Source: a virus
Lineage: Duplodnaviria; Caudoviricetes
IMG/VR virus record: IMGVR_UViG_3300039159_000058
Span: 1-52,482 of that record
Direction: 5' to 3' (one strand)
DNA length: 52,482 nt
Shown here piece by piece: positions 16,213 to 34,183 of this stretch. Both the position numbers and the translations under genes were made by a program. Below the pieces are notes generated by a model. It saw only the letters and a program-made list of their open reading frames with translations. It was not told where the DNA came from and searched no databases. Every line of letters starts with the position of its first letter. The first letter of the stretch is position 1.

Positions 16213-17259
16213 ATGTGCACACGTTTTACTATTCCCTACAAAGGCGGCACTTTAGTTGCTCGCACGATGGATTTTGCCAGCCCAACGGGCACAGAATTTG
16301 TTAAATACGAAACGGGCAAACTAGGCTACTGGGACCCACTAAACAGTAACGTTAAAGCGTACAACAAGACTCCTGTGTGGGGTCGTGCGACTAATAAGTT
16401 TGGCAAGTTCATTTTGTGTGACGGGGCAAACCAGTACTTCTCAGTTGAAGGTCTGTGGCTGCCAGAAACTAAGTATGAAAACCGCAACAGCGTGCTCAAA
16501 CCATCGACAGATAAGACTGACGCGTTAACGCTTATGAATTGGATTTTATCGGGCGACGTACAAGACCTTAACACGATGACTGACAAACTTAAGAACCTCA
16601 AGCCTGTAGCGTTATTTTTAGACGGCTTAACAGAGTCACTGGCCACTATCCACATGTCTATAACCGAATGGATTACGGGTAAAACCATTATTATGGAAAT
16701 CGGTACGGGCGACACTCCGGGTCTAGTCAAGGTTTACGACGCAGATCAAACAGGCTACGGCGTCATGACAAACAGCCCAATATACCGCTCACAGATTGAC
16801 AACTTGCGTGGTTATGTGAATTTGAACTCGGCAGCCAACGTAGAAGATGCAGTTATTGCGGGCATGAAGTTACACATGACGGGCAACGGCAACAACTTAG
16901 TCGGACTTCCCGGCGGGCCACTTCCTGCGGATCGTTTTGTTCGTGCATCAATACTGCTAAATTTGGCCACCAAAAACAATCCCAACATGACTTTAGATAA
17001 GGCCAAAGACACTGCAGCTGCGTTGATGAACACAGTTTACGTAGTTGATGGCACAACTTCTGAGTCAGCAATGATGCACCTGAAGACCAACTGGGACTCA
17101 ACACTCTGGTGTGTGATTAAGTACTTAGACGAAAAGAGCAACGTGGTCTATTTACATCGTGATAAAGCCGTTGATGGGTTTGTTATACGCTCAATAACTA
17201 ACGCCGATGCGCAAGACCCAGAGATCTCAGAAAAAGACATACAGGCAGCCAAAGCATGA
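16213..17259 (+). CDS. Ntn-hydrolase, choloylglycine hydrolase/penicillin V acylase family
   Basis: N-terminal nucleophile M-C-T, RTMDF, VMTNSP, GLPG...DRFVRA. Confidence 0.9.
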   Translation: MCTRFTIPYKGGTLVARTMDFASPTGTEFVKYETGKLGYWDPLNSNVKAYNKTPVWGRATNKFGKFILCDGANQYFSVEGLWLPETKYENRNSVLKPSTDKTDALTLMNWILSGDVQDLNTMTDKLKNLKPVALFLDGLTESLATIHMSITEWITGKTIIMEIGTGDTPGLVKVYDADQTGYGVMTNSPIYRSQIDNLRGYVNLNSAANVEDAVIAGMKLHMTGNGNNLVGLPGGPLPADRFVRASILLNLATKNNPNMTLDKAKDTAAALMNTVYVVDGTTSESAMMHLKTNWDSTLWCVIKYLDEKSNVVYLHRDKAVDGFVIRSITNADAQDPEISEKDIQAAKA

Positions 17260-17672
17260 TTTGCGCCCTCAACGAACCGTTGTACTTACACCTAATTTCT
17301 TTTGGTGGCGGGTTGTTGGGGGGCATTTCTATGCTTGTTTATATGCGAGCAAATGGTGTGGCGGATGGTCTGCGACGAATATTAATTAGCTCTGTCTCAT
17401 CAGGGTTACTGGCGTCTACGATGGCGTCAAAAATATTCGGCTCAGAGGCCCCAGAGTTGGTGGCTGCTTGCGCGTTTGTACTCGGGTTTGTTGCATGGAA
17501 TTTGCTAGGAGCTATTGCCCAGTTTTTTGAAAACAGAAAAGGTGACGACATCATGTCAATGTTAAAGACTTACAAAGACACTAACCGACCTAGTTACGGC
17601 GGGGGGTACGAGCCTAACAAAGTAATAGAGCCAATTGCTCGAAAAAACCAGATCGATAATCCGGACAACTAA
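17256..17672 (+). CDS. Putative holin
   Basis: About three hydrophobic segments and charged C-terminus, upstream of lysozyme. Confidence 0.6.
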   Translation: MICALNEPLYLHLISFGGGLLGGISMLVYMRANGVADGLRRILISSVSSGLLASTMASKIFGSEAPELVAACAFVLGFVAWNLLGAIAQFFENRKGDDIMSMLKTYKDTNRPSYGGGYEPNKVIEPIARKNQIDNPDN

Positions 17673-17673
17673 T

Positions 17674-18063
17674 ATGCAAGCATCACAACAACTTCTTGAA
17701 AGCTTACCCTTTTTCTGGGGCGTAGCTTTTGTAATTAACATAACGGTTGGAACGGTGCTTTTTGTCGCGATCATGCGACAGACTATGCCCTCTTGGTCCA
17801 CAGGGGTCACGTGCTGGGTTGCGTGGTGGGCATTTGCCACAGCAATTAGTTTGCTAATTAACGTAATCAGCGGCCCGAACGCCCCGTTCTCATACCACCA
17901 GATGGGCATCCTTACAGAGACGATGACTAACATCGGGATATTGCTTTGGGTTGCAACGTTTTCGGTACAAAACTGGGGCGTGCGAGGCGATGACTGGGAT
18001 CGTTTAAACGCGCTAAGAAAAAAAATTAATTTAGGTACGGAGCCAGATGATGAACCCAAGTGA
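17674..18063 (+). CDS. Membrane protein, second holin/antiholin candidate
   Basis: Three TM-like segments; ATG 17674 follows the previous stop. Confidence 0.55.
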   Translation: MQASQQLLESLPFFWGVAFVINITVGTVLFVAIMRQTMPSWSTGVTCWVAWWAFATAISLLINVISGPNAPFSYHQMGILTETMTNIGILLWVATFSVQNWGVRGDDWDRLNALRKKINLGTEPDDEPK

Positions 18064-18487
18064 TGAGTTAATAGAGCTGATAAAGCGCGCCGAGGGCTTT
18101 AGCGCTCAGGCATACCCAGACCCCGGCACGGGCGGTGAGCCCTACACCATTGGTTACGGCCATACGGGGCACGTAAAACTAGGTGACGTTGTTGACGAGG
18201 CACAAGCCGATGAGCTCTTACGTGCAGATTTGCAGCATGCTGTGGACGCAGTGCATGAGCTCGTAGCGTGGCCCTTATCGCAGAAGCAGTTCGATGCGCT
18301 TGTTGACTTTGTTTACAACGTTGGCACGGGTAATTTCACTAACTCCACGTTACTTAAGATGATTAACCAAAGAGATTTTATCGGCGCTGGCGAGCAGTTC
18401 TTGCGCTGGAATAAAGCTGGCGGCCACGTGATGGCAGGACTTACCAAAAGACGAGAGCAAGAGCGCGAGCTTTTCCTTAGCGCATGA
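18047..18487 (+). CDS. Endolysin, GH24 phage lysozyme
   Basis: EG...YPD...TIGYGH catalytic region, QFDALVDFVYNVG, GLTKRRE. Confidence 0.95.
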   Translation: MMNPSDELIELIKRAEGFSAQAYPDPGTGGEPYTIGYGHTGHVKLGDVVDEAQADELLRADLQHAVDAVHELVAWPLSQKQFDALVDFVYNVGTGNFTNSTLLKMINQRDFIGAGEQFLRWNKAGGHVMAGLTKRREQERELFLSA

Positions 18488-18900
18488 TCGGCCTACTGTT
18501 TAACCGGATGGTATGGGTGGCCATTGCTATTGCTGCGGCGGGTGCGGGTGGCTGGTGGATTGGGTATTCACATGAACACGAATTGTTTGTAGCCTTTAAA
18601 GCGCAAGTGACTGCTGCGGGTGAAGCCGCTCAAAAAGCGGCCAAAGAAACAGAGCAACGACACGAGGAAGCTAAAAATGAAATTGAGCAAGAGTATAAAG
18701 ATCGGATTGCTAGTGTGCAGCGTCGCTATGCTGACAGCTTGCGCCGTTCCAATAGCCGTGCAGTGCCCGCAACCAGCGATCCCACCAGACGCCTTAATGC
18801 AGCAGCCGCCAACAGCGACCCTTATTTAGTTGAGCAATGTGCGGAGACTACAACGCAGTTAATCGAATTACAAAATTGGATAAAAAGGACTTCAAAATGA
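18484..18900 (+). CDS. rz: Rz-like inner-membrane spanin
   Basis: N-terminal TM followed by coiled coil, after the lysozyme. Confidence 0.8.
   Translation: MIGLLFNRMVWVAIAIAAAGAGGWWIGYSHEHELFVAFKAQVTAAGEAAQKAAKETEQRHEEAKNEIEQEYKDRIASVQRRYADSLRRSNSRAVPATSDPTRRLNAAAANSDPYLVEQCAETTTQLIELQNWIKRTSK
18677..18829 (+). CDS. rz1: Rz1-like outer-membrane lipoprotein spanin embedded in Rz
   Basis: +1 frame; GAGGA SD; signal peptide with lipobox LTAC; Pro-rich mature part. Confidence 0.85.
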   Translation: MKLSKSIKIGLLVCSVAMLTACAVPIAVQCPQPAIPPDALMQQPPTATLI

Positions 18901-19370
18901 AACTAAAACTATTTTTTGTCCCAATGGCTATTTTCTTTGTTGTTATGAGCAACTCGCTTTTAGCTGCAAATTTAAACTTTGATGCTACGGTGGCAACATC
19001 TTGTACCCTTAATGTGGGCACGACTGGCGTAATGACAGTAGATAACTCAATTCCATCACTTATGAGCACCGGTAACGCGGGGGGCAACAGCGGCTCACTT
19101 GCCGTATCGTTCACGGGTACACCAACCCTAACAGTTACGATGCCTACGGCATTTAGTACCTCGCCCACCATTGGCTTTTCACCGATTTTTATGGGGACTG
19201 TCAATAGCAGTTCGTTTGGCTCAATGATTATCACGCAAGACGTAGCAACAGATACATACACGAGTGGCAACGGCGATGCTATTTCTGTGGGCCTATCCGT
19301 GAGCACAGGGGGTTCTACCGCTTTTCCGCTTGGCAGCTACCAAGCAGTAGTGACTGCGACATGTTCATAA
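18897..19370 (+). CDS. Exported pilin-like protein (Csu/spore-coat-U type fimbrial subunit)
   Basis: Signal peptide, then ANLNFDATVATSC.L alternating strand, S/T/G-rich beta body, C-terminal GSYQAVVTATCS; AAGGA SD supports ATG 18897. Confidence 0.65.
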   Translation: MKLKLFFVPMAIFFVVMSNSLLAANLNFDATVATSCTLNVGTTGVMTVDNSIPSLMSTGNAGGNSGSLAVSFTGTPTLTVTMPTAFSTSPTIGFSPIFMGTVNSSSFGSMIITQDVATDTYTSGNGDAISVGLSVSTGGSTAFPLGSYQAVVTATCS

Positions 19371-19813
19371 ATTTAGTTAGAGCAACGTTAGTTTTTGCGG
19401 CCGTATCTGGCGCGGCCTTTGCTCACGGTTTAAGTCCAACTCGTATTGAGGCGCCCTCAGGCTCCACGTTAGTAGCGTATAGATTTAGCGCATCAAATGG
19501 ACCTGAAGCCAACATATACGAAATTGAATGTTTTAAAGGTGGGTTTGATACACCATATCCGTGTCAATTTTCACCCCAAGTTTTAATTTTGTCACGTAAT
19601 GCCACACGTAATTTTAAAGTGCAGATTCAAACCAATGGTGATGGCCTTTATTTAATCTGCACCACACAGGGGATCACCAGTGAAAAATTTATTGTTACTC
19701 GCATTTGCGCTCGCGTTGGGGTTGGTGTCCCCGCAAGCACAAAGCCAGACAGCCATAGGCTCTATAAACCTGCCATCTCAGCCCCAGTTCCCCCAAGGCC
19801 AAGATCGAATTAA
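19361..19813 (+). CDS. Exported PapD-N-like fimbrial chaperone-like protein
   Basis: Signal peptide AFA|HGLSPTRI, single beta domain, four Cys. Confidence 0.5.
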   Translation: MFINLVRATLVFAAVSGAAFAHGLSPTRIEAPSGSTLVAYRFSASNGPEANIYEIECFKGGFDTPYPCQFSPQVLILSRNATRNFKVQIQTNGDGLYLICTTQGITSEKFIVTRICARVGVGVPASTKPDSHRLYKPAISAPVPPRPRSN

Positions 19814-20132
19814 GGGGGCCGATGGAACGGAGTGTTCAGTTAGTACAGCTCCAAGACAAAAGTTTATGGATGTAGGCGTTGTTGGTGGTACCAGTTCGGG
19901 GCAAGGGTCAGAGAATTCTTACGGTTACTTTGGGGGCTCAGGGTTAATACCACCGCAGAATCAGTACAGCCGTGCAACGGGTGGTGTCTACGCACGAATT
20001 GTTATTAATTTAGATCCAGAAAAACCAAGTATTGATTGCAATCGACTATACAACCTTGAGATCGAGCGCCTTAAAGCCGAGTTAGAACAAGTCAAGCTAA
20101 TAGGGGTCGGACGCGCTGTGGGGGGTAAATGA
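19680..20132 (+). CDS. Exported protein with two Cys and C-terminal coiled coil
   Basis: GTG start with GGGGA SD, clear signal peptide, GVYARIVINL and IDCNRLYNLEIERLKAEL. Confidence 0.75.
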   Translation: MKNLLLLAFALALGLVSPQAQSQTAIGSINLPSQPQFPQGQDRIKGADGTECSVSTAPRQKFMDVGVVGGTSSGQGSENSYGYFGGSGLIPPQNQYSRATGGVYARIVINLDPEKPSIDCNRLYNLEIERLKAELEQVKLIGVGRAVGGK

Positions 20133-20196
20133 TGTGGGTTTTATTTGTTATTACACTAGTTTTTTGATTTTTACTATGGGATATACGCACATAATG

Positions 20197-20241
20197 TGTT
20201 AGATACTAGTAGAATATATACTAGCTAACAGTTAGTATGTA
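20197..20241. promoter_or_regulatory. Cluster of operator-like motifs before the second tail operon
   Basis: TGTTAGATACTA 20197-20208, inverted TACTAGCTAACA 20219-20230, AGTTAGTATGTA 20230-20241. Confidence 0.6.
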
Positions 20242-20252
20242 AAGAGAAAAAT

Positions 20253-20525
20253 ATGATACCACTTGTAGATCTTATAGCCCTTACAGATATCGAGTTAGTG
20301 GGCGGCAATTTAATTATAGGTGTCGGTGAGAATCGTCGCTTTGTTGGCGCAGCACAAAATGGTTCATACACTTTAAACGACGAAGGTCGAGAGATCGCAC
20401 AAAGTCTTACAAGTGATGATTCAAAGGTATCAAACGAGAAACCTAAGCCCCCAAAGCGCAAAGCTGTAGCGCTAGATCCCGTAGAAGGTCTGATAAGCGA
20501 GCTTAACGCTTTAGGCATTGAGTAG
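20253..20525 (+). CDS. Hypothetical protein
   Basis: 90-aa ORF leading the tail tube operon. Confidence 0.65.
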   Translation: MIPLVDLIALTDIELVGGNLIIGVGENRRFVGAAQNGSYTLNDEGREIAQSLTSDDSKVSNEKPKPPKRKAVALDPVEGLISELNALGIE

Positions 20526-20534
20526 AGGAATTGA

Positions 20535-22205
20535 GTGCCATATCTAAGGATTGAGGGTTTCTCTGGCATCATCCCTAAAGTAACCCCCGGGTTGCTACCG
20601 GATAATGCTGCGCAAATTGCGCGTAACGTAAGGCTAGAGTCAAGGGCTATCGTGCCTTGGAACGACGACCAGCTAGAGTTTGACCCAGAGCTCACTGGTG
20701 ATATCCGAACAATTTACCGCTATGAAGGCCCTTCTTCTGAAAAGCCCGTATGGTTTGTTAGTAACACTGACATAGATTTTGTTTTAGGCCCCATAGCTGA
20801 CGTAAACGAGTACCGCTTGTATTTCGCTGGGGAGGCAATTACCCCCCGTAAAACGAACTGGAAAATGGCCACAAGTGCTGGCAAACCCCCGTACCCTAAT
20901 GAGTACTACGAGATGGGTACACCGGGGCCCATAACGGCTCCTGTCCTCACAGCCAGCGGTGGGGGCAAAGCCCCAACAGAAGTCCGGGCTTACGTGTATA
21001 CGTTTGTGACTGAGTTCGCACTTGTGCTTGAGGAATCAGCGCCTAGTAACGCAGCACTTGTTACGTGCAACACGGCTGATGATGTGGTTACGGTGTCTGG
21101 GTTTGATAAGCCACCAATTGGGCGCTACAACTATAAATTCTTACGTATATACCGTTCGGTAACGGGCAACTCAGCCGTCAACTACCAGTTAGTTGCGCAA
21201 CTCCCCATTCAGACCACAGAGTACAAAGACTCGTTAGCGGTGCAAGAGCTAGGAATAGTCCTGGCGTCCTCATACTTCACACCACCACCTGCGGGTCTTA
21301 AAGGCTTAGTCGTTATGCCTGGGGGCTTTTTGGCAGGGTTTGTAGGGAATCAAGTTTGGTTCTCAGAGCCATATATCCCGCATGCGTGGCCAAGCATTTA
21401 TATGCAGACTACAGACTTTCCGATCGTGGGATTAGCGGTGCTGGGTAACTCGTTAATAGTTTTAACGGATCGATATCCATATACGTTCACAGGTAGCGTG
21501 CCCACCGGTATTACATCCGATAAGCTTGGCCTCTTAGAGCCCTGTGTATCTAAACTGTCGATCACCTCAGATCAATACGGCATTATCTATGCCAGCCCTA
21601 ACGGCCTAGTGTCACTGAGCATTGGCGCGCAGAGTCTTATCACTCAAAGCCTTATTCGACGTGATCAGTGGCAAGACTACGCTCCTGAGACGATGTTTGG
21701 CGAGATATACAGCAACATGTATGTGGGTTTTTATAAAGGATTACTCGGCGTAAACCGCACTTTAATCTTATACCGTAACGATAACCCCCCATTGAGCAAT
21801 TATGATTTTCCCGGCGTAGCGTCATTTGTCGAGCCCAAAACAGGCGATCTGTTTGGCGTAGACGCCAGAGACAACAAGATTTATCAGCTTGACATAATTG
21901 GCACTAAACCTACTCGAGAGTATCAGTGGAAGTCTAAGCTTTTTATCATGCCCTTGCCTACGTCATTTGCGTGGATTCAAGTGCTTGCGGACTTCACCAA
22001 ATTTTCACCCGAGGAACGCCCTTTAACCGTTAGGCTTTATGCGGACCGTGAGTTCTTTTATGAGTTCAAGCCTAACACCACAGACCCCTTGCGACTCCCC
22101 GCGATTAAACGTGGATATAGTTGGGAGGTCGAGTTAATAGGTTTGCTACCGGTGCTGCGTGTCTTGTTAGCGACTACAACTGCAGAACTTAAGGAAACGA
22201 CATGA
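20535..22205 (+). CDS. Tail tubular/nozzle (stabilisation) protein
   Basis: 556 aa; FSGIIP..LPDNAAQIARN start, FSEPY.PHAWP, beta-propeller-like body, WKSK motif. Confidence 0.8.
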   Translation: MPYLRIEGFSGIIPKVTPGLLPDNAAQIARNVRLESRAIVPWNDDQLEFDPELTGDIRTIYRYEGPSSEKPVWFVSNTDIDFVLGPIADVNEYRLYFAGEAITPRKTNWKMATSAGKPPYPNEYYEMGTPGPITAPVLTASGGGKAPTEVRAYVYTFVTEFALVLEESAPSNAALVTCNTADDVVTVSGFDKPPIGRYNYKFLRIYRSVTGNSAVNYQLVAQLPIQTTEYKDSLAVQELGIVLASSYFTPPPAGLKGLVVMPGGFLAGFVGNQVWFSEPYIPHAWPSIYMQTTDFPIVGLAVLGNSLIVLTDRYPYTFTGSVPTGITSDKLGLLEPCVSKLSITSDQYGIIYASPNGLVSLSIGAQSLITQSLIRRDQWQDYAPETMFGEIYSNMYVGFYKGLLGVNRTLILYRNDNPPLSNYDFPGVASFVEPKTGDLFGVDARDNKIYQLDIIGTKPTREYQWKSKLFIMPLPTSFAWIQVLADFTKFSPEERPLTVRLYADREFFYEFKPNTTDPLRLPAIKRGYSWEVELIGLLPVLRVLLATTTAELKETT

Positions 22206-22453
22206 TACCTATGGGGTCAAAACTCGGCATACCGTCTCCTCTAGGGGTTCAAGATCCTGTTGCGCTTAGAGCCCTTATAGCCATCAAAGAGGCTGTCGAA
22301 AGATTAAGTGCTCAAGTGGACTCTTTAAATTACACGCTAGAAAAATCAGGGCAAGAAGTGGTCCCAATTTTACCCCGTGCAAATGCGCTACCTAATAACG
22401 TAGGACAAGCACCTCGGTTTAGTTCGGACAAAGACGTGTGTGGTAATGACTAA
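22202..22453 (+). CDS. Small virion-associated hypothetical protein
   Basis: Coupled ORF with short coiled coil. Confidence 0.6.
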   Translation: MIPMGSKLGIPSPLGVQDPVALRALIAIKEAVERLSAQVDSLNYTLEKSGQEVVPILPRANALPNNVGQAPRFSSDKDVCGND

Positions 22454-22886
22454 ACGAGTTGTTTACGGCGAAGATTCTCGTGTGTGCAAGTGGGTGCAAG
22501 AGCTAGTGGATGAGGATGATTTTGGGGATGGTGCAGTAGGTATTGGGCTTGAAAAAGATGGTGAGTTAGTAGCTGGAGTCGTGTTTAACAACTACAACAA
22601 AGCCAGTATTCATATGCACGTAGGTGCCAAGAAAGGCACAAACTGGCTAACAAGAGAGTACTTAACCCGATGTTTTGCGTATCCGTTTATACAGTTAAAG
22701 GTTAATCGAGTCACAGGGTTAGTACGTATAGATAACTTAGCGGCTCAAAAGTTTGACGAACACCTAGGATTTAAGCGAGAAGGGCTCGTTAGGCAGGGTT
22801 GTACGGACGGTACGGACATGATTTTATACGGACTACTTAAAGACGAATGTAGGTATTTACCAAAGGTACTAACAAATGAGACTTGA
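22446..22886 (+). CDS. GNAT-family acetyltransferase (virion assembly associated)
   Basis: N..AQKF.EHLGFKREG GNAT motif; usual position before ejection proteins. Confidence 0.85.
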   Translation: MTKRVVYGEDSRVCKWVQELVDEDDFGDGAVGIGLEKDGELVAGVVFNNYNKASIHMHVGAKKGTNWLTREYLTRCFAYPFIQLKVNRVTGLVRIDNLAAQKFDEHLGFKREGLVRQGCTDGTDMILYGLLKDECRYLPKVLTNET

Positions 22887-25406: not shown

Positions 25407-28400
25407 ATGAGCTCATTAGCAAATTTACGAGAGTCTTACCCAGAGCAGACTAAAGATCTAACAGATTCCGATATAGTTTTTGGGTCTGCGAAAATGTTTG
25501 GCGTATCCCCCAAAGAGGTTGCTACGTCACTCGGATTAGATCCAAATGACAGAACTTGGGGCGAAGCAATCGTAGACACAGGGGTGCGAGCACTTAATGC
25601 CGTAGTGGGATCTGCTGGGGCTATTGCCTCGGCTTTTGATCCAAAGGGTAGTGAGGATATAAAAACACTTCAAGGCTACGGCGAAGAGGCTATGTCGCTT
25701 AAGTCTCGCATCGCCAGTGATGAGTTTAATACGGCGCTATCAACTAGTAATCTTGGAACACAAGCTAAAGGTGTTTGGGAATATATAAAGCAAGACCCCG
25801 TGGGTACCGCAGCTGAAGCCATTGGTAATTTTGTTATCCCCGGTGCAGCCATTAAAGGCGTTAAAGCTCTATCTATGGGGGCAAAACTATCTACAAAAGC
25901 CGCAGGAAACGTGGCTCTTGGTGCGGGCGCTGTTGTGGGCGGTGTGATGTCTGGTGGCGACGCTGCGGGGGATGCTTACGAGCGAGTCTTTAAGGCCACA
26001 AATGATGCAGATAAAGCTAATAGTGCAGCCAGATCGGCGCAAGTAATTCCTACTTTTGTCGGAGCAGGTGCGTCCCTTATAGGGCTAGAGAAATATCTGG
26101 CTAAAGGCGTTGGCCGCGCAAAAATAATAGGGACGGGTCTAAAAGAAGGCGTGAGTGAGCTTGTCGATGAGGGCACAAGTAAGTTAGAAGCAAATAGAGC
26201 TGTTGCACCGTATGTGGCGGGCACGGATATTATGGCGGGTGTGTTCGGCTCAGGACTCTACGGCATGGCGCAAGGCGGTGTGGTAGGTTCTACGGGGGCT
26301 GTGGTTAACAATATCAGTGTTGCGAGGGATGAGCGCAATAACGGCATTACGGTCGTAGGATATGTAGATAAAGCTGATAAGGCCGCAGCGCAAGCTATAA
26401 ATGGTACGAGCAATACCGATACGGGACAAACAGGCGGTCAATATACTCCCCCCACATTAGAGCAACAAGCCGATGCGATTGAGGTTAAACGTTTAGAAGC
26501 CAAGCAACTTGCCGCACAAGAACAGCAAAAAGCTAATGCGCAACAAGCACCAGTAGTTGCTGCGCAGCAACAACAAGCTGCACAAGCACAGTCAGTGCAA
26601 ACAGCGCAACAGTTATTTGATCAATTCGGCATGAAACCCGTATTAAACGACGTAGACGGGCAACCCACAGGTAAATTTGTAGTGGGCGAGAAAATGTTTT
26701 TTACCGAAAACGATGCTGTCAATTTCGCTAAAGGCTTGGTTGACGCTGGTAAAGACTTAAATCCCTATCAACAAAGTATGGTGGGAGTCTTATTTGGTGG
26801 TGATACGCTTGCTGCTAAAGCCGGGGATACTGCGAAGGGGATGGTAAGTCGTGCGGTTAAGTTTATGTCCGACAATCAGCTCTCGTCTGCGAAGACTATG
26901 GAAGAGGCTGTAACCCGAATTGATCAAATTATTGAAAACACTGCGCCCAATACAGACCTATCAAGCAGTAAACCTAACGTAGACGCTAGAAGGCTTTTAT
27001 CGCTTGATAAGTTACGCACGTCTATTACCGGTGAGGCTTCTGTTCGTTTGTCGGAGATAGCGGAGCAGCAAAGGCTTGTCGTAGAAAACGAGGTCAAAGC
27101 GAAAGAGGACGCAAAACAAGCGGCTCAAGCGGCAAAAGATAAGAAGGCTGCTGATGCTGCGGCAAAGAAAGCGGGCAAAGGGGCTGCGAAAACATCGACA
27201 GATGTAAAAAGCCAAACAAACACAGCAAGTGCAACAAACACAACAAGTGCAACAGACGCGGCAAGTGCATCTAGCCCAGTGACTAATGTATCTGTTGGAC
27301 AATATTTAGCCGAACAGGCAAATAACGGGGGCGTATCCCCAACAACTGGAGATTCAAATGGACAGCAACAACAGCAAAGTGCTACCGGGGTGGGAACAGT
27401 TCCAGTCCAAAGCGGAGCAAATCAAGACAGCACAAACACAGATGGGGATGTACGACCTACGAGCAATGAACCCATCGGGGCAGGAAGTGTCGGACTTGGA
27501 CCGAATGGCCAGCAAAATGACTCCCGAGGAACAAACGGAGATGAACAACGAACCGTACAACCCGCCAATACCAATGAGCGCAGTACTACTGGGCAAAACA
27601 TTGCGCAGGAAGTAATATCACCCAATAGCCCTAATTTAACGGGACAAGGAGACGTAGTTGGCTCAAGAACCGAAAGCAACACCACAAGTAACGTCCCTAC
27701 GGACACCGGAGGAAAGAGCTCTGTTTCGCCAGAAGTTGGCAGCTCAAATACTGGAGTTGTGGAAGGAAAAAGACCCCGAGGGCGTGCGCCGCGTGGACCG
27801 AACGTATCGACTGTCGCAAGCGATGTTACCGCTGCTACTGAAAATGACGGAAGAAGAAAAGGCCGCCAAGAAACTCCCGCCGAACGAGCTGCCATAGATG
27901 GAGCTGTTGCGCAGAGTCGTGAGTTAAACGGTGCGTTAGAGCGAGTATTTAACAAAGTATTTGTGACCTTTGGCGGTAACTCTGGGATTAAAAACGCTAG
28001 TAAAAAAGTTGATTTCTTTGCGCAGTTTTATCTAAATCCAGATGCTCTAGCGGATACGTCGTTACCGCAAATCGCAATAGACATGGATGTTCCCCTAGGG
28101 ACTATAAAGTCTTGGAGTGCGGAGCTGGCGCAAGATCCCGTCACAGGGCGTAGTGTTTTTGATGCGAAATACGAATCACGTTTGCGTGAGGCTTACGCAG
28201 CGGTTGCTAAAGATCTTAACCTCACAATAGAAGAAATGACTGCTGTTGTTCAGGCCAATGACTCTGTAGCAAAAATGACGAATGAGCTGAGCGAAGCTTT
28301 TGAAGCGCAGCAACTCTTAGACGAGGTAACTGGTTCTGAATCAGGCGCCTTTGCGCGAGAAGCTGTGCAAGAACTCACAGATAAATCCTCTACGAAAGAA

Positions 28401-31400
28401 TCGCAAGAAGCCTTTGCGTATGACGCGCTCAAAGCAACTAATGAGAATAATGACACGGGTTTAACCCTAAGTGACAGCCCAAGTGACACGAGTGTATCGG
28501 AGCAATTCAACACCGGTGAGGGTATTAGTAACAATTACATAAAGTTATTTGAGGGCTTAGAAAACGCTAAGAAAAAGGGCGATGCCACGCAGATAGAGGC
28601 TGCGCAAAAGAAACTAGACGACTTTATGGCAAAGGTCCCTAAGCTTACAAAGGACTCTATTAAGTTTCGTAAAGTTGGGGATCAAACCAACACCAAAGAA
28701 GAATCAGATGGAGCGAGCGAAGCTACGGGTAAAACCACTGTCTCTGAACAGATTAAGGCTAAAGTCAAACAAAAAAATAACGACGCTAAGTCAGGCACTA
28801 AAGCCTTGCCTAATGGGGTTATTAAAACGTCTAAAGAGCAGTACACAGACTTGGTCAAAGACATTGCTCAAGCCCCAGCGTTTGATGCGTTAAGCAATAA
28901 ACAACAGTCCCTAGTTACGGATCTTGCGCAGCGCGGGAAGTTAAACCTTGCGGCCATTAATCGTATCGTGGGGGAGGATTCGGTCCAGCTAAGCATAGCG
29001 CCCAAGGCTAAAGAAACATACATAGCGAATGATCTACGAGCCCAAGTGGTCGCATACATCGGGGTAGATAACAAAGACAAACTTGTCGTTTTACAGAGTG
29101 CCAAGGACATTCCCGCTCGCATAGTAAAACGAGAGCCAAAAGTACTTACCGCTGGGGGGTTTGTTTTTGAGAAACGTGCGTATTTAATTGCGGACAATAT
29201 CGCCCAGGGGCGTGGTATTGCAACATTTATGCACGAAGTCGGAGGCCATATAGGCCTACAACAAATGCTGGGTGATGAGTTCCATAATTTAGTAGACGAA
29301 ATATATGAGTGGAATAAAAGTGATGCTAACTCGCTTGAAGCAAAGTTGGCTCAAGCAGCCATTAGACGTGTAGCGGCTACAGATGTCTCTGGCCTTAAGT
29401 ATGAAAACGAATTGGTTGCGTACTTTATCGAAGAAGCAGTGCTCGCTGGCGTAAAGCCCACACATACGGGTAAAGTTGAACGAGTACTTAAAAAAGTAAT
29501 CAATGCGTTTAAAAAGGCATTATCGGTTCTTGGTATGAACCCGCAGTTCCTGACTGCCAAAGATGTTGTGAATCTGGCCTACGGTGCGGCTCAGATGGAG
29601 CTTAGCAACAAATTAGAAAGCACTAAGGACTCAGACAAAGAGGTGCAATTGTCAGAAAAAGATAACTTAACCCCAGCGCAAGAGAGTCGTATCGACCGCA
29701 ACATGGAGCGAGTACCGGGAAAAGTACGGGATGTGTTCTCAGCCTACTCAAAAGCCATTGCGCGACAAAGTAATAAGTTACGTTTTACGGGTCAGTTAAT
29801 AGAACAAGCTGCAAAGAGAATACCTGCGGCTAAAAGATATCTTGACCTTACGCGGGAGCAAATCGCGATTCGCGCCAAAGCACTTTACGACGTGGAGAAG
29901 ATATCCAATAAGTTTGATGCGTTACCAAAACCCGAACAGCGCGCAGTTAATCGTCTGTTAAAGGAGTCTACTCGAACAGGCAAGTGGGCTTTTGTACCCT
30001 CGTGGGTTCGTGGGGACGACGGAAAACCATCGATTAAAGCTAACGAAAGTCTTAAAGAGCAGTTCGATCTTTTATCGGCTCCGGCGCAACAAACAGTACG
30101 TGACGTGTTCGCAAACGGTTATGTCAGTATGGACAAGATGCGCGATGGTGCTACGCAGATGATTAACAGCATGTACGCCGAGAATATCGAGACCGCTAGG
30201 CGCGCCAACGACACAGAAACAGTAGCTGACTTACAAAAAGAGATGCGCACTCAGTTAGCTGACTTTAACCGGCTCTTTACGGAAAGAGGCCGCAAGCCCT
30301 ACGCGCCACTGCGACGATTCGGAAACCACGTGGTGGTTATGCGCTCCAAAGAGATGTTAGATGCGTTAAACACAGTGGAGACTGCGCAAGACAAAAGCAC
30401 ACCAGAAGATGTCGTTAAAGAGGCTAAAAAGTTTATTCGCGACAACGAAGGTAATGCCGAGCATTACCAACTGCACTTTAGAGAGAGCGGTATTGCAGCG
30501 CAAAGTTTGGCTCGAAGTTTAAAAGATATTGCCGGATCGACAGTGCAGACGTTTACGCGAGACCAAGCAGCCAAGGAGCTCTATACATCGGCAGATATTC
30601 ATGGGCTTATGTATCGATTACGTAAAAAATCAGCCGACGTGGTTGAAGGATCTACGGACCCTAAAACTGGGCGCGAGCTTGGCAACTTGTTAACCGAGCT
30701 GCATTTAACGCTTTTGTCAGAGCAAAACGCAAGACACGCCGAACATCGGCGGGTAGAAGGTGGTGTTGAGGGCGCGGAAGATAACATGATGCGTGCGTTT
30801 CATTCTCACGGAATGTCCACAGCGTCTGTAATCGCAGGGATGCACAAAAGTAAAGACATCGTTAACGCTCTTGAGCAGTTTGAAAAAGCCGCCAATGACC
30901 GAACCAACCCTAACAGGGCTCAGGACACAGCGCTCTATAACGAGGTAGCAGCTCGTTACGCGGTCGGACTGGATACAAATGATTCTGTGATTACCGATAC
31001 GGTACTAAAGTACAACTCTGCGATGATGCTTTTGCTTAAGCCCACGTATTACTTGCAGAACTTAATGCAGCCCTGGTCAATGACGTTACCCGTGTTGGCA
31101 GGTCGTTTTGGGCTACGTGCTGCGAAAGCTCTAGGGGCTGCGCAAACAGAAATTAGTGCCGTTATGTCCGGGGAGCGGTTAACCCTAGATACTATAGAAA
31201 AACTACCCCACGATGTACGTGGCGCGGTTAAAGACTTACTTGACTCGGGTCGCTTAAGCATCTCGCTTGACCAAGATATGGGTAATAGGCTGCGAGGGGC
31301 AAACGCTGGGGACAAAGTAATTACTAAGCTCCAAGGTATTGTCGAACGTGTAGAGGGTTTTAACCGAGTTAGCACAGCTATAGCTGCCTACCGTATGGCG

Positions 31401-32504
31401 GTTCTTGCGGGGGACTCTCACGTTAAGGCTGTTAATTACGCAGGAAACATTATTTACGATACACACGGAGACTACTCCGGGGCTAACGCTCCACGTCTTA
31501 TGCGCTCACAAGTAGGTCGAGTGCTTACACAGTTCCGTAAATTTCAGCTTATTCAAATTGGATTACTCGCTAAGCTTGGGCGTGAGTCGTTTCTAGACGG
31601 CTCACTTGACGCGGATGAGAAGTTAATTGCCCGTAAAGCGCTTGGGTATACCTTGTCTACTGCGTTCGCCATGGGCGGGCTATATGCGCTTCCTGGGGTT
31701 ACTGCTGCGATGTGGATACTAGGTAAAGTGTTTGGGAGCGCCGATGAGCCTCAGGACCCAGAAGCCCAAGAAGCACGGTTACGTAAAAAGATAGGAAACC
31801 CTGGCGTAGCTGATATTTTATTGCGCGGGGCTTCACGCTCAGTTCTTGGGATGCAAGACGGGCAAGCCTTAGGACTGGCTGATTGGAGCGGCATGTTAAG
31901 TCTCTTGCCGTACACCAAAATAGAAACCGCAGATCGTTCGACGTACCAGAACATATTGACTGGTCTGTCAGGCGCGGCCATAGGTGGTACGGGGCTAAAA
32001 ATGTTTGAGTCTATGGGTAAATTTGCTGAGGGCGATATTGCGGGTGGACTCGCTAAAGCTCTCCCCTCAGGTGTGGCCAATATAGTTAAAGCTATGCAAC
32101 TTGCAGAAAAAGGTGTCACACGTACTTCTGGGACTCAAATACTTAGCCCTGATGACATTTCTGGGTTCACAGTTTTCTTAGCCGGTTTGGGGGTTAAGAC
32201 GGGCGAGGTAGTGGACAAAGAGTTTACAAACCGTGTGGTTAACACCTACGAAGCGTTCTACAAAAATGAGTCGCAAATGATCACTAAAGATTACTCCGAA
32301 GCTTGGGAGAAAGGTGACTCAAAAGCTATGCAAGAAGCTCGAGAGCGTTGGAGCGAACTTAATGACTCCAGAAAAAATAATGGGTTCACACCACAGCCGT
32401 TTTCAACACTTATTAAATCGCCACTAGGTAAGCGTAAATTTGAAAACAAACTTAAAGGTCAGTTGTCAAACACGGGTAATCTTTTAACAGGAAAAGGGGA
32501 GTAA
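25407..32504 (+). CDS. Giant internal virion (polyvalent) protein with metallopeptidase-like motif and PLxRFG domain
   Basis: 2365 aa; Gly/Ala-rich N-terminus, FMHEVGGHIGL...ENELVA, YAPLRRFG. Confidence 0.85.
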   Translation: MSSLANLRESYPEQTKDLTDSDIVFGSAKMFGVSPKEVATSLGLDPNDRTWGEAIVDTGVRALNAVVGSAGAIASAFDPKGSEDIKTLQGYGEEAMSLKSRIASDEFNTALSTSNLGTQAKGVWEYIKQDPVGTAAEAIGNFVIPGAAIKGVKALSMGAKLSTKAAGNVALGAGAVVGGVMSGGDAAGDAYERVFKATNDADKANSAARSAQVIPTFVGAGASLIGLEKYLAKGVGRAKIIGTGLKEGVSELVDEGTSKLEANRAVAPYVAGTDIMAGVFGSGLYGMAQGGVVGSTGAVVNNISVARDERNNGITVVGYVDKADKAAAQAINGTSNTDTGQTGGQYTPPTLEQQADAIEVKRLEAKQLAAQEQQKANAQQAPVVAAQQQQAAQAQSVQTAQQLFDQFGMKPVLNDVDGQPTGKFVVGEKMFFTENDAVNFAKGLVDAGKDLNPYQQSMVGVLFGGDTLAAKAGDTAKGMVSRAVKFMSDNQLSSAKTMEEAVTRIDQIIENTAPNTDLSSSKPNVDARRLLSLDKLRTSITGEASVRLSEIAEQQRLVVENEVKAKEDAKQAAQAAKDKKAADAAAKKAGKGAAKTSTDVKSQTNTASATNTTSATDAASASSPVTNVSVGQYLAEQANNGGVSPTTGDSNGQQQQQSATGVGTVPVQSGANQDSTNTDGDVRPTSNEPIGAGSVGLGPNGQQNDSRGTNGDEQRTVQPANTNERSTTGQNIAQEVISPNSPNLTGQGDVVGSRTESNTTSNVPTDTGGKSSVSPEVGSSNTGVVEGKRPRGRAPRGPNVSTVASDVTAATENDGRRKGRQETPAERAAIDGAVAQSRELNGALERVFNKVFVTFGGNSGIKNASKKVDFFAQFYLNPDALADTSLPQIAIDMDVPLGTIKSWSAELAQDPVTGRSVFDAKYESRLREAYAAVAKDLNLTIEEMTAVVQANDSVAKMTNELSEAFEAQQLLDEVTGSESGAFAREAVQELTDKSSTKESQEAFAYDALKATNENNDTGLTLSDSPSDTSVSEQFNTGEGISNNYIKLFEGLENAKKKGDATQIEAAQKKLDDFMAKVPKLTKDSIKFRKVGDQTNTKEESDGASEATGKTTVSEQIKAKVKQKNNDAKSGTKALPNGVIKTSKEQYTDLVKDIAQAPAFDALSNKQQSLVTDLAQRGKLNLAAINRIVGEDSVQLSIAPKAKETYIANDLRAQVVAYIGVDNKDKLVVLQSAKDIPARIVKREPKVLTAGGFVFEKRAYLIADNIAQGRGIATFMHEVGGHIGLQQMLGDEFHNLVDEIYEWNKSDANSLEAKLAQAAIRRVAATDVSGLKYENELVAYFIEEAVLAGVKPTHTGKVERVLKKVINAFKKALSVLGMNPQFLTAKDVVNLAYGAAQMELSNKLESTKDSDKEVQLSEKDNLTPAQESRIDRNMERVPGKVRDVFSAYSKAIARQSNKLRFTGQLIEQAAKRIPAAKRYLDLTREQIAIRAKALYDVEKISNKFDALPKPEQRAVNRLLKESTRTGKWAFVPSWVRGDDGKPSIKANESLKEQFDLLSAPAQQTVRDVFANGYVSMDKMRDGATQMINSMYAENIETARRANDTETVADLQKEMRTQLADFNRLFTERGRKPYAPLRRFGNHVVVMRSKEMLDALNTVETAQDKSTPEDVVKEAKKFIRDNEGNAEHYQLHFRESGIAAQSLARSLKDIAGSTVQTFTRDQAAKELYTSADIHGLMYRLRKKSADVVEGSTDPKTGRELGNLLTELHLTLLSEQNARHAEHRRVEGGVEGAEDNMMRAFHSHGMSTASVIAGMHKSKDIVNALEQFEKAANDRTNPNRAQDTALYNEVAARYAVGLDTNDSVITDTVLKYNSAMMLLLKPTYYLQNLMQPWSMTLPVLAGRFGLRAAKALGAAQTEISAVMSGERLTLDTIEKLPHDVRGAVKDLLDSGRLSISLDQDMGNRLRGANAGDKVITKLQGIVERVEGFNRVSTAIAAYRMAVLAGDSHVKAVNYAGNIIYDTHGDYSGANAPRLMRSQVGRVLTQFRKFQLIQIGLLAKLGRESFLDGSLDADEKLIARKALGYTLSTAFAMGGLYALPGVTAAMWILGKVFGSADEPQDPEAQEARLRKKIGNPGVADILLRGASRSVLGMQDGQALGLADWSGMLSLLPYTKIETADRSTYQNILTGLSGAAIGGTGLKMFESMGKFAEGDIAGGLAKALPSGVANIVKAMQLAEKGVTRTSGTQILSPDDISGFTVFLAGLGVKTGEVVDKEFTNRVVNTYEAFYKNESQMITKDYSEAWEKGDSKAMQEARERWSELNDSRKNNGFTPQPFSTLIKSPLGKRKFENKLKGQLSNTGNLLTGKGE
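27216..27269 (+). repeat. 18-bp coding tandem repeat x3 (TNTASA/TNTTSA/TDAASA)
   Basis: ACAAACACAGCAAGTGCA, ACAAACACAACAAGTGCA, ACAGACGCGGCAAGTGCA. Confidence 0.85.
27358..27615 (+). CDS. Candidate overprinted gene 1 nested in +1 frame of the giant protein
   Basis: GGAG at 27348-27351, ATG 6 nt later; 85 aa. Confidence 0.5.
   Translation: MDSNNSKVLPGWEQFQSKAEQIKTAQTQMGMYDLRAMNPSGQEVSDLDRMASKMTPEEQTEMNNEPYNPPIPMSAVLLGKTLRRK
27658..27897 (+). CDS. Candidate overprinted gene 2 nested in +1 frame of the giant protein
   Basis: AAGGAG at 27646-27651, TTG 6 nt later; 79 aa amphipathic helical. Confidence 0.5.
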   Translation: MAQEPKATPQVTSLRTPEERALFRQKLAAQILELWKEKDPEGVRRVDRTYRLSQAMLPLLLKMTEEEKAAKKLPPNELP

Positions 32505-33166: not shown

Positions 33167-34183
33167 ATGGCGTACTTAGAGAAATTAAAAAACGGTAGAA
33201 TCCGGGTGCAAATACGTGGCGCCGGGAAGCCCCAAATTAGCAAAACTTTTACCTCAAAAAATGAAGCTGACGCGTGGGTAAAATACATCGAAATAGAGGG
33301 CGGAGATTCTCTACTTTATAACCACAAAAAAAATACCGTAGGGGATTTATTTACCCGGTATATGTTTAAGGTTAGTGTTAACAAAAAGAGTGGTCGTTCT
33401 GAGATTATTCGGATCATGAAAATGATCCGTGAAGTGGACTTTATGCGGCTTCCATTGACCAAATTAAGTCACATACATTTACGGGAATGGCGCGATCAGC
33501 GAGTCACTGAAGTAAGCGATTCGTCCACCCGACGAGAGTTCAATACTATCAGTGCAGTTATCAATCACTCGATAAAAGAATGGGACGTTCCGCTCTCCCT
33601 GGATATGACAAAAAAGGTCAGAAGGCCCATCGAACACAAACCCAGAAGTCGGAATGTGTCACAAAAAGAAATTGCATTGCTGTGGGAAAATACCCCGGAA
33701 ATTGGCCGAGGTGTAGCAGGTTACGTTGCCGCGATATTTGAGTTTTGTTGCGAAACGGCCATGCGAAAAGGTGAGGCTTTGGCGCTCACTTGGGATGATA
33801 TTAAGACTGGAGACAACGGCACAACGTGGGCAATTATTCGTGAATCCAAAAACGGAACCAGTAGATTTGTCCCTTTTACGAGCCGTGCTAAGGAAATAAT
33901 TGCTAAGATTCCCTTAAAAGAACCAAGGGTTTTCCCTATTACTTCGGGAGCCCTTGATCCTGTGTTTAGAGAGTTAGCTAGGAAGCTTGGAATAGAAAAT
34001 TTACACTTCCACGATAGTCGGCATCAAGCGACCCTTATGCTTTCGAAGAAGTTTTCTCCGCTTGAGCTTGCAAAAGTGACCGGGCATAAGTCCCTGGATG
34101 TTTTATTGAACGTATACTATCAGCCGACTGGTGACGATTTAGCTCAAACACTTGCGTCTTCTGTCCTTGAGCCAACACCTTAG
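33167..34183 (+). CDS. int: Tyrosine recombinase (phage integrase)
   Basis: TAMRKGE, SKNG, FHDSRH, TGH, VYY catalytic residues. Confidence 0.95.
   Translation: MAYLEKLKNGRIRVQIRGAGKPQISKTFTSKNEADAWVKYIEIEGGDSLLYNHKKNTVGDLFTRYMFKVSVNKKSGRSEIIRIMKMIREVDFMRLPLTKLSHIHLREWRDQRVTEVSDSSTRREFNTISAVINHSIKEWDVPLSLDMTKKVRRPIEHKPRSRNVSQKEIALLWENTPEIGRGVAGYVAAIFEFCCETAMRKGEALALTWDDIKTGDNGTTWAIIRESKNGTSRFVPFTSRAKEIIAKIPLKEPRVFPITSGALDPVFRELARKLGIENLHFHDSRHQATLMLSKKFSPLELAKVTGHKSLDVLLNVYYQPTGDDLAQTLASSVLEPTP

Follow-up and report, generated by a model that had tools for sequence, protein, structure and literature searches.

The IMG/VR virus record IMGVR_UViG_3300039159_000058, with a length of 52,482 base pairs (bp) and a completeness estimate of ~90%, carries three overlapping genes at the end of its lysis cassette, which are named here g1, g2 and g3 (the record, taken as the whole stretch of DNA that was analysed, is called the window). 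To judge from the sequence, these genes form a genuine and conserved three-gene phage module, which encodes predicted Sec-exported and disulfide-bonded proteins: a pilin-like beta-sandwich protein, a one-domain immunoglobulin (Ig)-like protein and a third protein of no known family.

The three-gene module

The genes of the trio follow the Rz/Rz1 pair on the + strand (Table 1). The initial annotation described them as three overlapping genes, translationally coupled to the end of the lysis cassette, and the coordinates bear this out: the ATG of g1 and the TGA of the Rz-like gene have bases in common in the sequence ATGA (18897-18900), g1 and g2 share 10 nucleotides (nt), and g2 and g3 share 134 nt. 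The start codon of g3 is a GTG, with a GGGGA sequence 10 nt upstream. The translations also agree with the earlier claim of a Sec-type signal peptide and paired cysteines in each protein; the signal peptides were read from them by eye. Each N-terminus has a positive n-region and a hydrophobic core followed by an AxA-like site, and cleavage is predicted at ...SLLA/ANLNF in g1, ...AFA/HGLSP in g2 and ...AQS/QTAIG in g3. No lipobox is found in the three translations. The Cys residues given in the table are the only ones in g1 and g3, and g2 has two more (C57 and C68), which makes four.

The lysis cassette and the trio constitute an uninterrupted string of + strand genes (17256-20132). A consensus scan found no + strand promoter-like site in 17554-20700 and no terminator-like site, either inside the gene string or in the gap that closes it, and the GC content of the trio region is that of the rest of the phage. 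Given the phage-like composition and the lack of internal promoter-like or terminator-like sites, the trio appears to belong to the late lysis transcription unit and not to be an island of its own, and it is predicted to share the transcript of the late lysis genes and to be coupled to them in translation. The alternative of a compositional island or of a moron driven by its own promoter was considered and dropped because of the phage-like GC content and the lack of a + strand promoter-like site near g1.

Table 1. Features of the lysis cassette and of the three-gene module (positions in the window; aa, amino acids; ORF, open reading frame; E values follow family names)
Feature	Position	Strand	Basis
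Holin-like membrane protein, 138 aa, opens the lysis cassette	17256..17672	+	Weak PHROG holin matches (phrog_6384, 0.002; phrog_2359, 0.0032); directly 5' of the endolysin region
Second membrane protein of the lysis cassette, 142 aa	17635..18063	+	Hydrophobic segments in the ORF
Endolysin, phage lysozyme family	18047..18487	+	PF00959, E 2.9e-44; phrog_7, 1.2e-57
Rz-like i-spanin, stop overlaps the g1 start (ATGA)	18484..18900	+	phrog_1327, 1.5e-7; phrog_312, 2.3e-7
Embedded Rz1-like o-spanin lipoprotein ORF, +1 frame within Rz	18677..18829	+	Lipobox LTAC, then Pro-rich 29-aa mature part
g1, secreted pilin-like beta-sandwich protein, 157 aa, Cys36 and Cys156	18897..19370	+	ORF, family profile, AlphaFold2 model
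g2, secreted one-domain Ig-like protein, 150 aa, His22, Cys100-Cys116	19361..19813	+	ORF, relatives, alignment, AlphaFold2 model
g3, secreted protein, 150 aa, no known family, Cys52 and Cys120, C-terminal amphipathic/coiled-coil-like helix	19680..20132	+	ORF, relatives
g2/g3 overlap, 134 nt, in which the tail of g2 covers the signal peptide and N-terminus of g3	19680..19813	+	Coordinates
AT-rich intergenic gap closing the lysis-plus-trio string	20133..20252	.	GC 0.38 at 20000-20399

Conservation and genomic context

The initial annotation had named the failure of the three genes to co-occur in other genomes as an outcome that would speak against it, and this is not the case, since the trio co-occurs widely. 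Two close viral contigs (L002 and L003) contain the trio in the same order, directly after an Rz gene with an embedded Rz1-like ORF; in L002 it is flanked by Rz on one side and by a 207-aa endolysin-like gene on the other, and at both junctions the stop codon overlaps the next start codon. Two metagenome contigs first revealed a diverged g3 family, whose profile matched 388 viral stretches, the best 80 of which are the diverged-family loci considered here. In 74 of these 80, the g1-family hidden Markov model (HMM) matches an ORF ~0.9 kb upstream of g3. In the remaining six g1 could not be seen because at most 518 nt of sequence are available upstream of g3, so that g1 is present in 74/74 informative loci. 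The gap between g1 and g3 is filled by a middle ORF of 125-150 aa on the + strand in all of the 77 sources with both genes, a count that leaves out the window itself (L001) and L006, which belongs to the same contig as L003. A narrow g2 HMM made from six sequences recognises 19 of 87 sources, duplicates included, and the others belong to the same family by alignment. The overlap between g2 and g3 is small or missing in the diverged family.

Searches of 50,697 named phage records by megablast/tblastn with the region, g1, g2, g3 and the diverged g3 gave no match, and we know of no cultured phage that carries the trio. The scans of genome contigs with the g3 and g2 profiles yielded no confirmed relatives, and nothing was found in viral contigs with a closer g1 alignment or with a single g3 sequence.

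The diverged-family trio sits in a larger conserved string of uncharacterised genes (L007-L086; for example, L065:3726-6892). Upstream of it, 51 of the 85 sources encode a 193-aa protein that has a signal peptide and a C-terminal anchor (phrog_20531, unknown function), and 66 encode a secreted protein of 291 aa; downstream, a membrane and coiled-coil protein is found in 80 of the 85 sources (weak Rz-like match, E 0.0025), often followed by the small terminase subunit (33/85; phrog_3802, 1.6e-38). These numbers are lower bounds because many loci are incomplete. In L065, tail-fibre-like genes are followed by the 193-aa and 291-aa-type proteins, g1, g2 and g3, and then by a membrane protein, a holin-like protein with two transmembrane segments, an Rz-like and an endolysin-like protein, and finally a homologue of the phrog_511-type protein with 790 aa. 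This slot, from the tail fibres to the phrog_511-type protein, is the one that the trio occupies in the window. The link with the lysis genes is therefore seen in three arrangements: after Rz (window), between Rz and endolysin (L002), and upstream of the lysis genes (L065).

Usher and integrase genes in carrier genomes

Chaperone-usher (CU) pili need an outer-membrane usher. As the initial annotation had noticed, none is present here: the Usher family PF00577 has no match in the window record or in the five other carrier records (0/1 and 0/5), including G001, a genome of 53,560 bp with terminal repeats that is 100% complete by CheckV. In the same search, PF00577 was matched in E. coli, which served as the positive control. 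No usher-sized ORF exists among the conserved flanking clusters of the diverged family.

The window encodes an integrase at 33167-34183 (phrog_1, 1.7e-48), by which its phage can be classed as temperate. Neither a tyrosine integrase nor a resolvase is found in any of the five other carrier records, G001 among them. The module is kept, then, by at least one apparently non-temperate phage and by the integrase-bearing phage of the window.

The pilin-like protein g1

A word-indexed search with g1 returned only g1 itself. With a profile of g1 and two viral homologues, 203 cluster representatives among 1.84 billion were obtained at E <= 1e-3 (40 at <= 1e-10), and nearly all members of the family have a length of ~150-165 aa. 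One member is recorded in a bacterial chromosome, as a hypothetical protein of Nitratireductor indicus (WP_143087887.1; P0187, in the cluster of P0077; longest contig 1.85 Mb).

The AlphaFold2 model of g1, based on a 100-sequence alignment, is all-beta, with a predicted local distance difference test score (pLDDT) of 92.7 and a predicted template modelling score (pTM) of 0.78. Nearly all of the top rows of a Foldseek search against the PDB are either CU pilins (PapA at E 3.5e-3, Caf1, CsuA/B, the PapG pilin domain, FimG, FimF, CfaB, CS17 and PapE) or archaeal donor-strand fibres. CsuA/B and the Csu pilus occupy ranks 3 and 10 (E 7.1e-3 and 1.5e-2). The best rows of the VIA search are archaeal cannulae, with Z scores of 7.5 and 7.1 over 105-129 aligned residues, values that fall within the background range stated by the tool; CfaE (Z 6.8 and 6.3) and CfaB are also listed. 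A fold search of BFVD gave no match at E <= 1e-3 and no informative names.

The hallmark of CU subunits is an alternating-hydrophobic N-terminal donor strand with a conserved Gly, together with a conserved C-terminal strand. Termini of this donor-strand type are present in the g1 family (155 unique sequences). The N-terminal strand has the alternating pattern h-x-h-x-G-x-h-x-s-x-C-x-h; counted from the first mature Cys, position -10 is hydrophobic in 80% and -8 in 94% of the sequences, -6 is Gly in 85%, -4 is V or I in ~90% (94% hydrophobic), and +2 is hydrophobic in 100%. The C-terminus follows the pattern F-P-x-G(98%)-x-Y(94%)-x-A(69%)-x-V-x-h-x-C(100%). Exactly two Cys residues are found in 151 of the 155 sequences, and the last one is at most three residues from the end in 140. 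In a joint alignment, the terminal motifs of g1 line up with the N-terminal extension, the first Cys and the last strand of FimA/I/F/G.

At the sequence level, a Pfam search with g1 gave nothing at E values up to 10, and no Pfam family except SCPU (PF05229) is matched by more than a single member of the g1 family. The comparison of the g1 family with FimA by hhalign was not significant (7.5%). The best PDB sequence match of the g1 profile is the N-terminus of 10ss_a (E 0.0059). This chain is labelled 'Ferrous iron transporter B', but its N-terminus (a signal peptide and ..ITFNGKV..C..) and the 14 chains in its entry look like those of a fimbrial subunit, so the label may not fit the chain. By the resemblance of its model and of its termini, g1 may be described as a pilin-like beta-sandwich subunit with the hallmarks of the fibres that assemble by donor-strand complementation.

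The Ig-like protein g2

Three database relatives of g2 were found, with 49-56% identity. In the family of 61 unique sequences the invariant residues are H22, P26, C100 and C116. His22 (19424-19426) is the first residue after the predicted cleavage site in all of them (61/61, alignment A8), which is reminiscent of N-terminal-His metal sites.

As the initial annotation had it, g2 consists of one domain, of ~105 mature residues, which AlphaFold2 builds as a seven-strand Ig-like sandwich at low confidence (six sequences, pLDDT 63.5). The Foldseek matches of this model (E 3.5e-4 to 3e-3) comprise a FixG-related domain as the best row, HAP2 domain 3, and PapD-like and MSP domains with many pilus chaperones (E 4.8e-4 to 3e-3). 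The Atlas model of g2 matches pilus-chaperone clusters with TM scores of 0.72-0.74, a cluster named 'putative copper chaperone PCu(A)C' with 0.73, and unnamed bacterial clusters with 0.72-0.76. There is no Pfam match of g2 to PapD_N or PapD_C, and hhalign of the g2 family against FimC was not significant (0.24%). The predicted complex of mature g1 and g2 had a score of 0.01, under the mark of 0.32, and with controls not run this value speaks neither for nor against binding. The tail of g2 after residue ~126 is variable among the homologues and poorly modelled; the part of it within the overlap with g3 is probably a passive read-on. From its model, g2 would be an Ig-like, one-domain periplasmic partner that is like the N-terminal domain of PapD in shape only, in a fit that is not specific to PapD.

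The third secreted protein, g3

The 28 database relatives of g3 have ~151 aa and are 40-76% identical to it, apart from the window's own shorter call: the automated annotation gives g3 only 88 aa, from an internal Met (P0017). An alignment of 21 homologues contains 35 invariant columns, which include both Cys residues and also cover the N-terminal half of the protein. Since residues upstream of the internal Met are invariant, the 150-aa frame that starts at the GTG is supported as the real one. The shortened call and the 134 nt that the g2 tail has in common with g3 are the two facts that might suggest that some or all of the ORFs of the trio are not real genes. This is extremely improbable, because many independent contigs conserve the protein sequence of every frame, and the half of g3 missed by the automated call holds invariant residues.

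The only PHROG matched by g3 is phrog_37374 (5.9e-8), of unknown function, and the nearest viral Atlas clusters have 63, 95 and 1228 members. The core of the g3 superfamily consists of a first part, nL.lP..P...sDr.r.gd..C...(E)FGVvG, a variable loop, and a second part, gVYarI.Ip....erinCN.LY.LE.., which leads into a helix. The initial annotation described this gene by a beta segment, a C-terminal coiled coil and a 134-bp overlap with g2, and the overlap is borne out by the coordinates. The features predicted here make g3 a small protein in which a disulfide is conserved and whose C-terminal helix is amphipathic.

Lysis genes and other features of the window

The spanin genes next to the trio have the features expected of a coiled-coil protein of the inner membrane with an embedded or adjacent gene for an outer-membrane lipoprotein, namely the Rz-like PHROG matches in the window and an embedded Pro-rich ORF with a lipobox in the window, L002 and L003. 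The trio was considered as a substitute for a missing o-spanin, and this idea was dropped because the Rz1-like ORFs are present. The second membrane protein of the lysis cassette had no match in Pfam and PHROG searches.

The window also contains terminase, portal, major head and tail-fibre genes, and encodes a DNA polymerase and a primase/helicase on the opposite strand. The protein at 20535-22205 is a 556-aa member of phrog_511 with ~31% identity to proteins of Vibrio, Stx-converting, Escherichia, Ralstonia and other phages; 364 records were matched by this type of protein. Between the tail-fibre genes and the holin (16213-17259) lies a gene for a 348-aa protein of the choloylglycine-hydrolase / linear amide C-N hydrolase family (PF02275, 1.2e-25), which is unusual for a phage as a neighbour of the lysis cassette. 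A 2365-aa ORF (25407-32504) matches the PHROG 'DarB-like antirestriction' in its C-terminal part (4.3e-39), and a gene of the acyl-CoA N-acyltransferase type (22440-22886; phrog_4470, 6.4e-47) is found within the region of virion proteins.

Interpretation and alternative explanations

The confidently modelled pilin-like protein with termini of the donor-strand type, the adjacent Ig-like protein, the co-conserved third protein and the absence of an usher point to a usher-independent, donor-strand-type periplasmic assembly that would be made late, with the lysis genes. The probability of this reading is put at roughly 0.45, that is, somewhat below even. According to it, g1, g2 and g3 would be exported to the periplasm late in infection, beside holin, endolysin and spanin; g2 might transiently hold or cap g1 by beta-strand complementation; and g1 might self-associate through its N-terminal strand without an usher, in the manner of archaeal cannulae, whose polymerisation proceeds with neither chaperone nor usher. 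The helix of g3 may serve for its oligomerisation and tie the assembly to the envelope. The cannulae are reported to form polymers by donor-strand complementation in the absence of a chaperone (PMC12518558). From the position of the module in the lysis cassette and in a late operon, and from its presence in an integrase-less phage, we infer that it would act in the lytic cycle, at the cell envelope and at the step of lysis or release, rather than as a fimbria of lysogenic conversion; the finding of the same module in a complete phage without integrase as well as in the temperate phage of the window favours a lytic-cycle role.

Several observations weigh against this reading. For g1, the Foldseek search of the PDB gave no match at E <= 1e-3 (the best being the 3.5e-3 of PapA), and Z scores of at most 7.5 are what VIA returns as background when a model has no clear match; MSCRAMMs, integrin domains and diphtheria-toxin R domains reach similar scores. 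SCPU matches only two of 100 members of the family, with a best E value of 0.039, under the cut-off. The g1 disulfide, from the first strand to the C-terminus, is unlike the A-B disulfide of the Fim subunits, and each of the five carrier records holds exactly one g1-family gene, a single pilin-like gene. For the g1 family and 13 E. coli pilins hhalign gave a probability of 85.9%, which was discarded as an artefact of the signal peptides, as it falls to 2.4% over 15 columns when only the mature parts are compared. Signal peptides left in hhalign alignments are a methodological trap that inflates the probability of a match between g1 and pilins (alignments A4 and A11). For g2, the confidence of the model is low, VIA has GbpA and GH2 Ig domains in its first rows, level with FimC, so that generic Ig sandwiches reach an equal Z, and hhalign against five E. 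coli chaperones gives 1.35%, or 0.8% with the signal peptides removed. The second chaperone domain is lacking, the Arg of the 'PTR' motif is replaced by Tyr in the diverged family, and the invariant His has no role in a chaperone model. Pfam, NCBIfam and PDB sequence searches retrieved nothing for g1, g2 or g3. Finally, the lysis link, seen in the three arrangements described above, is not documented for most diverged loci, since a search with three endolysin seeds placed an endolysin close to the module in only 8 of the 85 sources. Membership of the trio in the chaperone-usher family is not established, and several of the defining features of that family were looked for and not found.

These results divide the identities proposed in the initial annotation. 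For g1 as a Csu/spore-coat-U pilin, the structure prediction and fold search that it had recommended gave a confident model, a pilin-dominated Foldseek list that includes CsuA/B, and pilin-like termini, and these count in its favour; the sequence homology that such an assignment implies is not significant, the SCPU matches are too few, and the structural scores are tied with those of unrelated sandwiches. The PapD likeness of g2 is retained as far as PapD-like N-terminal domains are among its best structural matches, and is weakened by the generic sandwiches with equal Z and by the lack of sequence homology. The LSPTRI motif has to be abandoned as a PapD cue, on account of the Tyr that takes the place of its Arg in the diverged family.

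The exported and disulfide-bonded nature of the three proteins would also suit secreted Ig-like or other small envelope proteins unrelated to pili, whose fold likeness would be convergent or generic and which would mask or modify a receptor or the envelope late in infection, protecting the progeny or blocking superinfection. The Llp protein of T5 and the Cor proteins are functional parallels for such receptor masking and exclusion. The place of the module in the window and in L065, where tail-fibre genes lie on one side and lysis genes on the other, the structural Z scores no better than those of generic Ig sandwiches, and the failure to find sequence homology to pilus proteins are all in line with this explanation. 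It is nevertheless judged unlikely, because the Foldseek list of g1 is strikingly enriched in donor-strand pilins, because an alternating N-terminal strand with a conserved Gly throughout 155 sequences is hard to explain in a monomeric binder, and because three co-conserved genes exceed what the known single-protein exclusion factors need. The initial annotation also proposed that the trio might decorate virions at lysis. Its fimbrial model, a minimal fimbrial set that uses a host usher, either to make a fibre specified by the phage or to jam or cap the pili of the host, with lysogenic conversion or the exclusion of pilus-dependent phages as its purpose, is improbable. It accounts for a pilin-like g1 beside a chaperone-like g2 in carrier records that lack an usher, and both the temperate nature of the window phage and the chromosomal g1-family member of N. 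indicus agree with it. A purely lysogenic-conversion fimbria is, however, argued against by the module being found in a complete genome without integrase or resolvase and inside lysis cassettes. The translational coupling within late lysis operons, in a region without a + strand promoter-like site, and the absence of sequence similarity to the pilins and chaperones that ushers recognise also count against a host usher.

The invariant His of g2 suggests a further explanation, in which g2 would be a periplasmic Ig-like protein that binds a metal, for example copper, through its N-terminal His, as in proteins of the CopC, YcnI and PCu(A)C type, and the trio would perform a metal or redox task. 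The conservation of this His directly after the signal-peptide site in all g2-family sequences, the Atlas cluster named after PCu(A)C and the FixG-related domain in the first Foldseek row are compatible with such a function. But Pfam gives no match to CopC, PCuAC or DUF1775 even at E values up to 10, there is no second conserved metal ligand (His, Met or Asp) among the invariant residues, which besides H22 are only P26, C100 and C116, and g1 and g3 are left unexplained, so that a metal-binding trio seems quite improbable. An even smaller probability is given to g3 as an oligomeric outer-membrane pore that would replace the usher and export g1. Its two conserved beta-like segments (..EFGVVG.. 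and ..GVYARIxI..) around a variable Gly-rich loop, its conserved C-terminal helix and its constant association with g1 and g2 might fit a pore; yet the helix is highly charged, and no similarity to a secretin, an usher or a CsgG-type protein is seen (the g3 family reached a non-significant 0.55% against FimD in hhalign, and sequence and profile searches of the PDB with this family gave no match).

The usher-independent donor-strand assembly can also be formulated in a bolder way, which is doubtful. Tailed phages of Gram-negative, largely marine hosts would carry an usher-independent donor-strand system that polymerises in the periplasm in the last minutes of infection, as a new component of lysis and release. 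Such a system might act mechanically on the outer membrane or the cell wall, or reorganise them, or it might coat debris or receptors at burst.

Significance and comparison with known systems

The lysis cassettes of the phages of Gram-negative bacteria are thought to be understood in terms of holin, endolysin and spanin, and a recurrent secreted trio beside these genes points to an unrecognised late periplasmic function. The module recurs in hundreds of viral contigs, and it has no annotation in Pfam, NCBIfam or the named PHROGs. In terms of annotation, three new protein families with clear signatures are gained and the automated call of g3 is corrected. If g1 truly assembles by donor-strand exchange, the trio shows how small such a system may be, with no usher and a one-domain partner, and it would bear on the evolution of CU pili and on the design of self-assembling protein fibres. 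If the bolder formulation were true, this would be the first phage-encoded machinery of the chaperone-usher kind, and the first in the bacterial world to need no usher. No published description of a phage-borne pilin-like or chaperone-like module was found in the portion of the full-text literature open to searching.

The classical CU pili (FimA-FimC-FimD, PapA-PapD-PapC) resemble the phage module in having a Sec-exported beta-sandwich subunit of ~15 kDa, with an alternating N-terminal strand that carries a central Gly and then a Cys, and a C-terminal G-x-x-x-A... strand. They share with it a neighbouring gene for a periplasmic Ig-like protein (g2 in the phages), and their pilins dominate the Foldseek list of g1. 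Unlike them, the trio is encoded by phages beside lysis genes and has no usher, g2 has one domain instead of two and lacks the conserved Arg of the PapD type, and g3 has no CU counterpart; the differences extend to the lack of significant sequence homology, to the disulfide of g1 and to the single pilin-like gene per genome. With the archaic (sigma) Csu pili and the SCPU family, the similarity concerns the size of g1 and the presence of CsuA/B and the Csu pilus in the Foldseek rows. In contrast to the Csu systems, the trio contains neither a two-domain chaperone like CsuC nor a CsuD usher, and the few SCPU matches stay under the cut-off.

The Rz/Rz1 spanins and other lysis-cassette genes are comparable to the trio in their operon, their translational coupling, their periplasmic location and their disulfide bonds, and the coiled-coil-like helix of g3 recalls the i-spanins. 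However, the carriers already hold complete Rz/Rz1 pairs, g1-g3 have no membrane anchor or lipobox, and the PHROG lysis families show no match to g1, g2 or g3. The archaeal filaments, that is, the cannulae formed by CanA and the bundling pili, provide the best VIA matches of g1, albeit in the background range, and are reported to be donor-strand polymers that assemble without chaperone or usher (PMC12518558). They differ in belonging to archaea instead of to phages of Gram-negative hosts, and the phage module has two extra conserved partners. In comparison with all of these, what would be new here is a donor-strand fibre system that is borne by phages, dispenses with the usher, and combines its subunit with a one-domain partner and an extra component.

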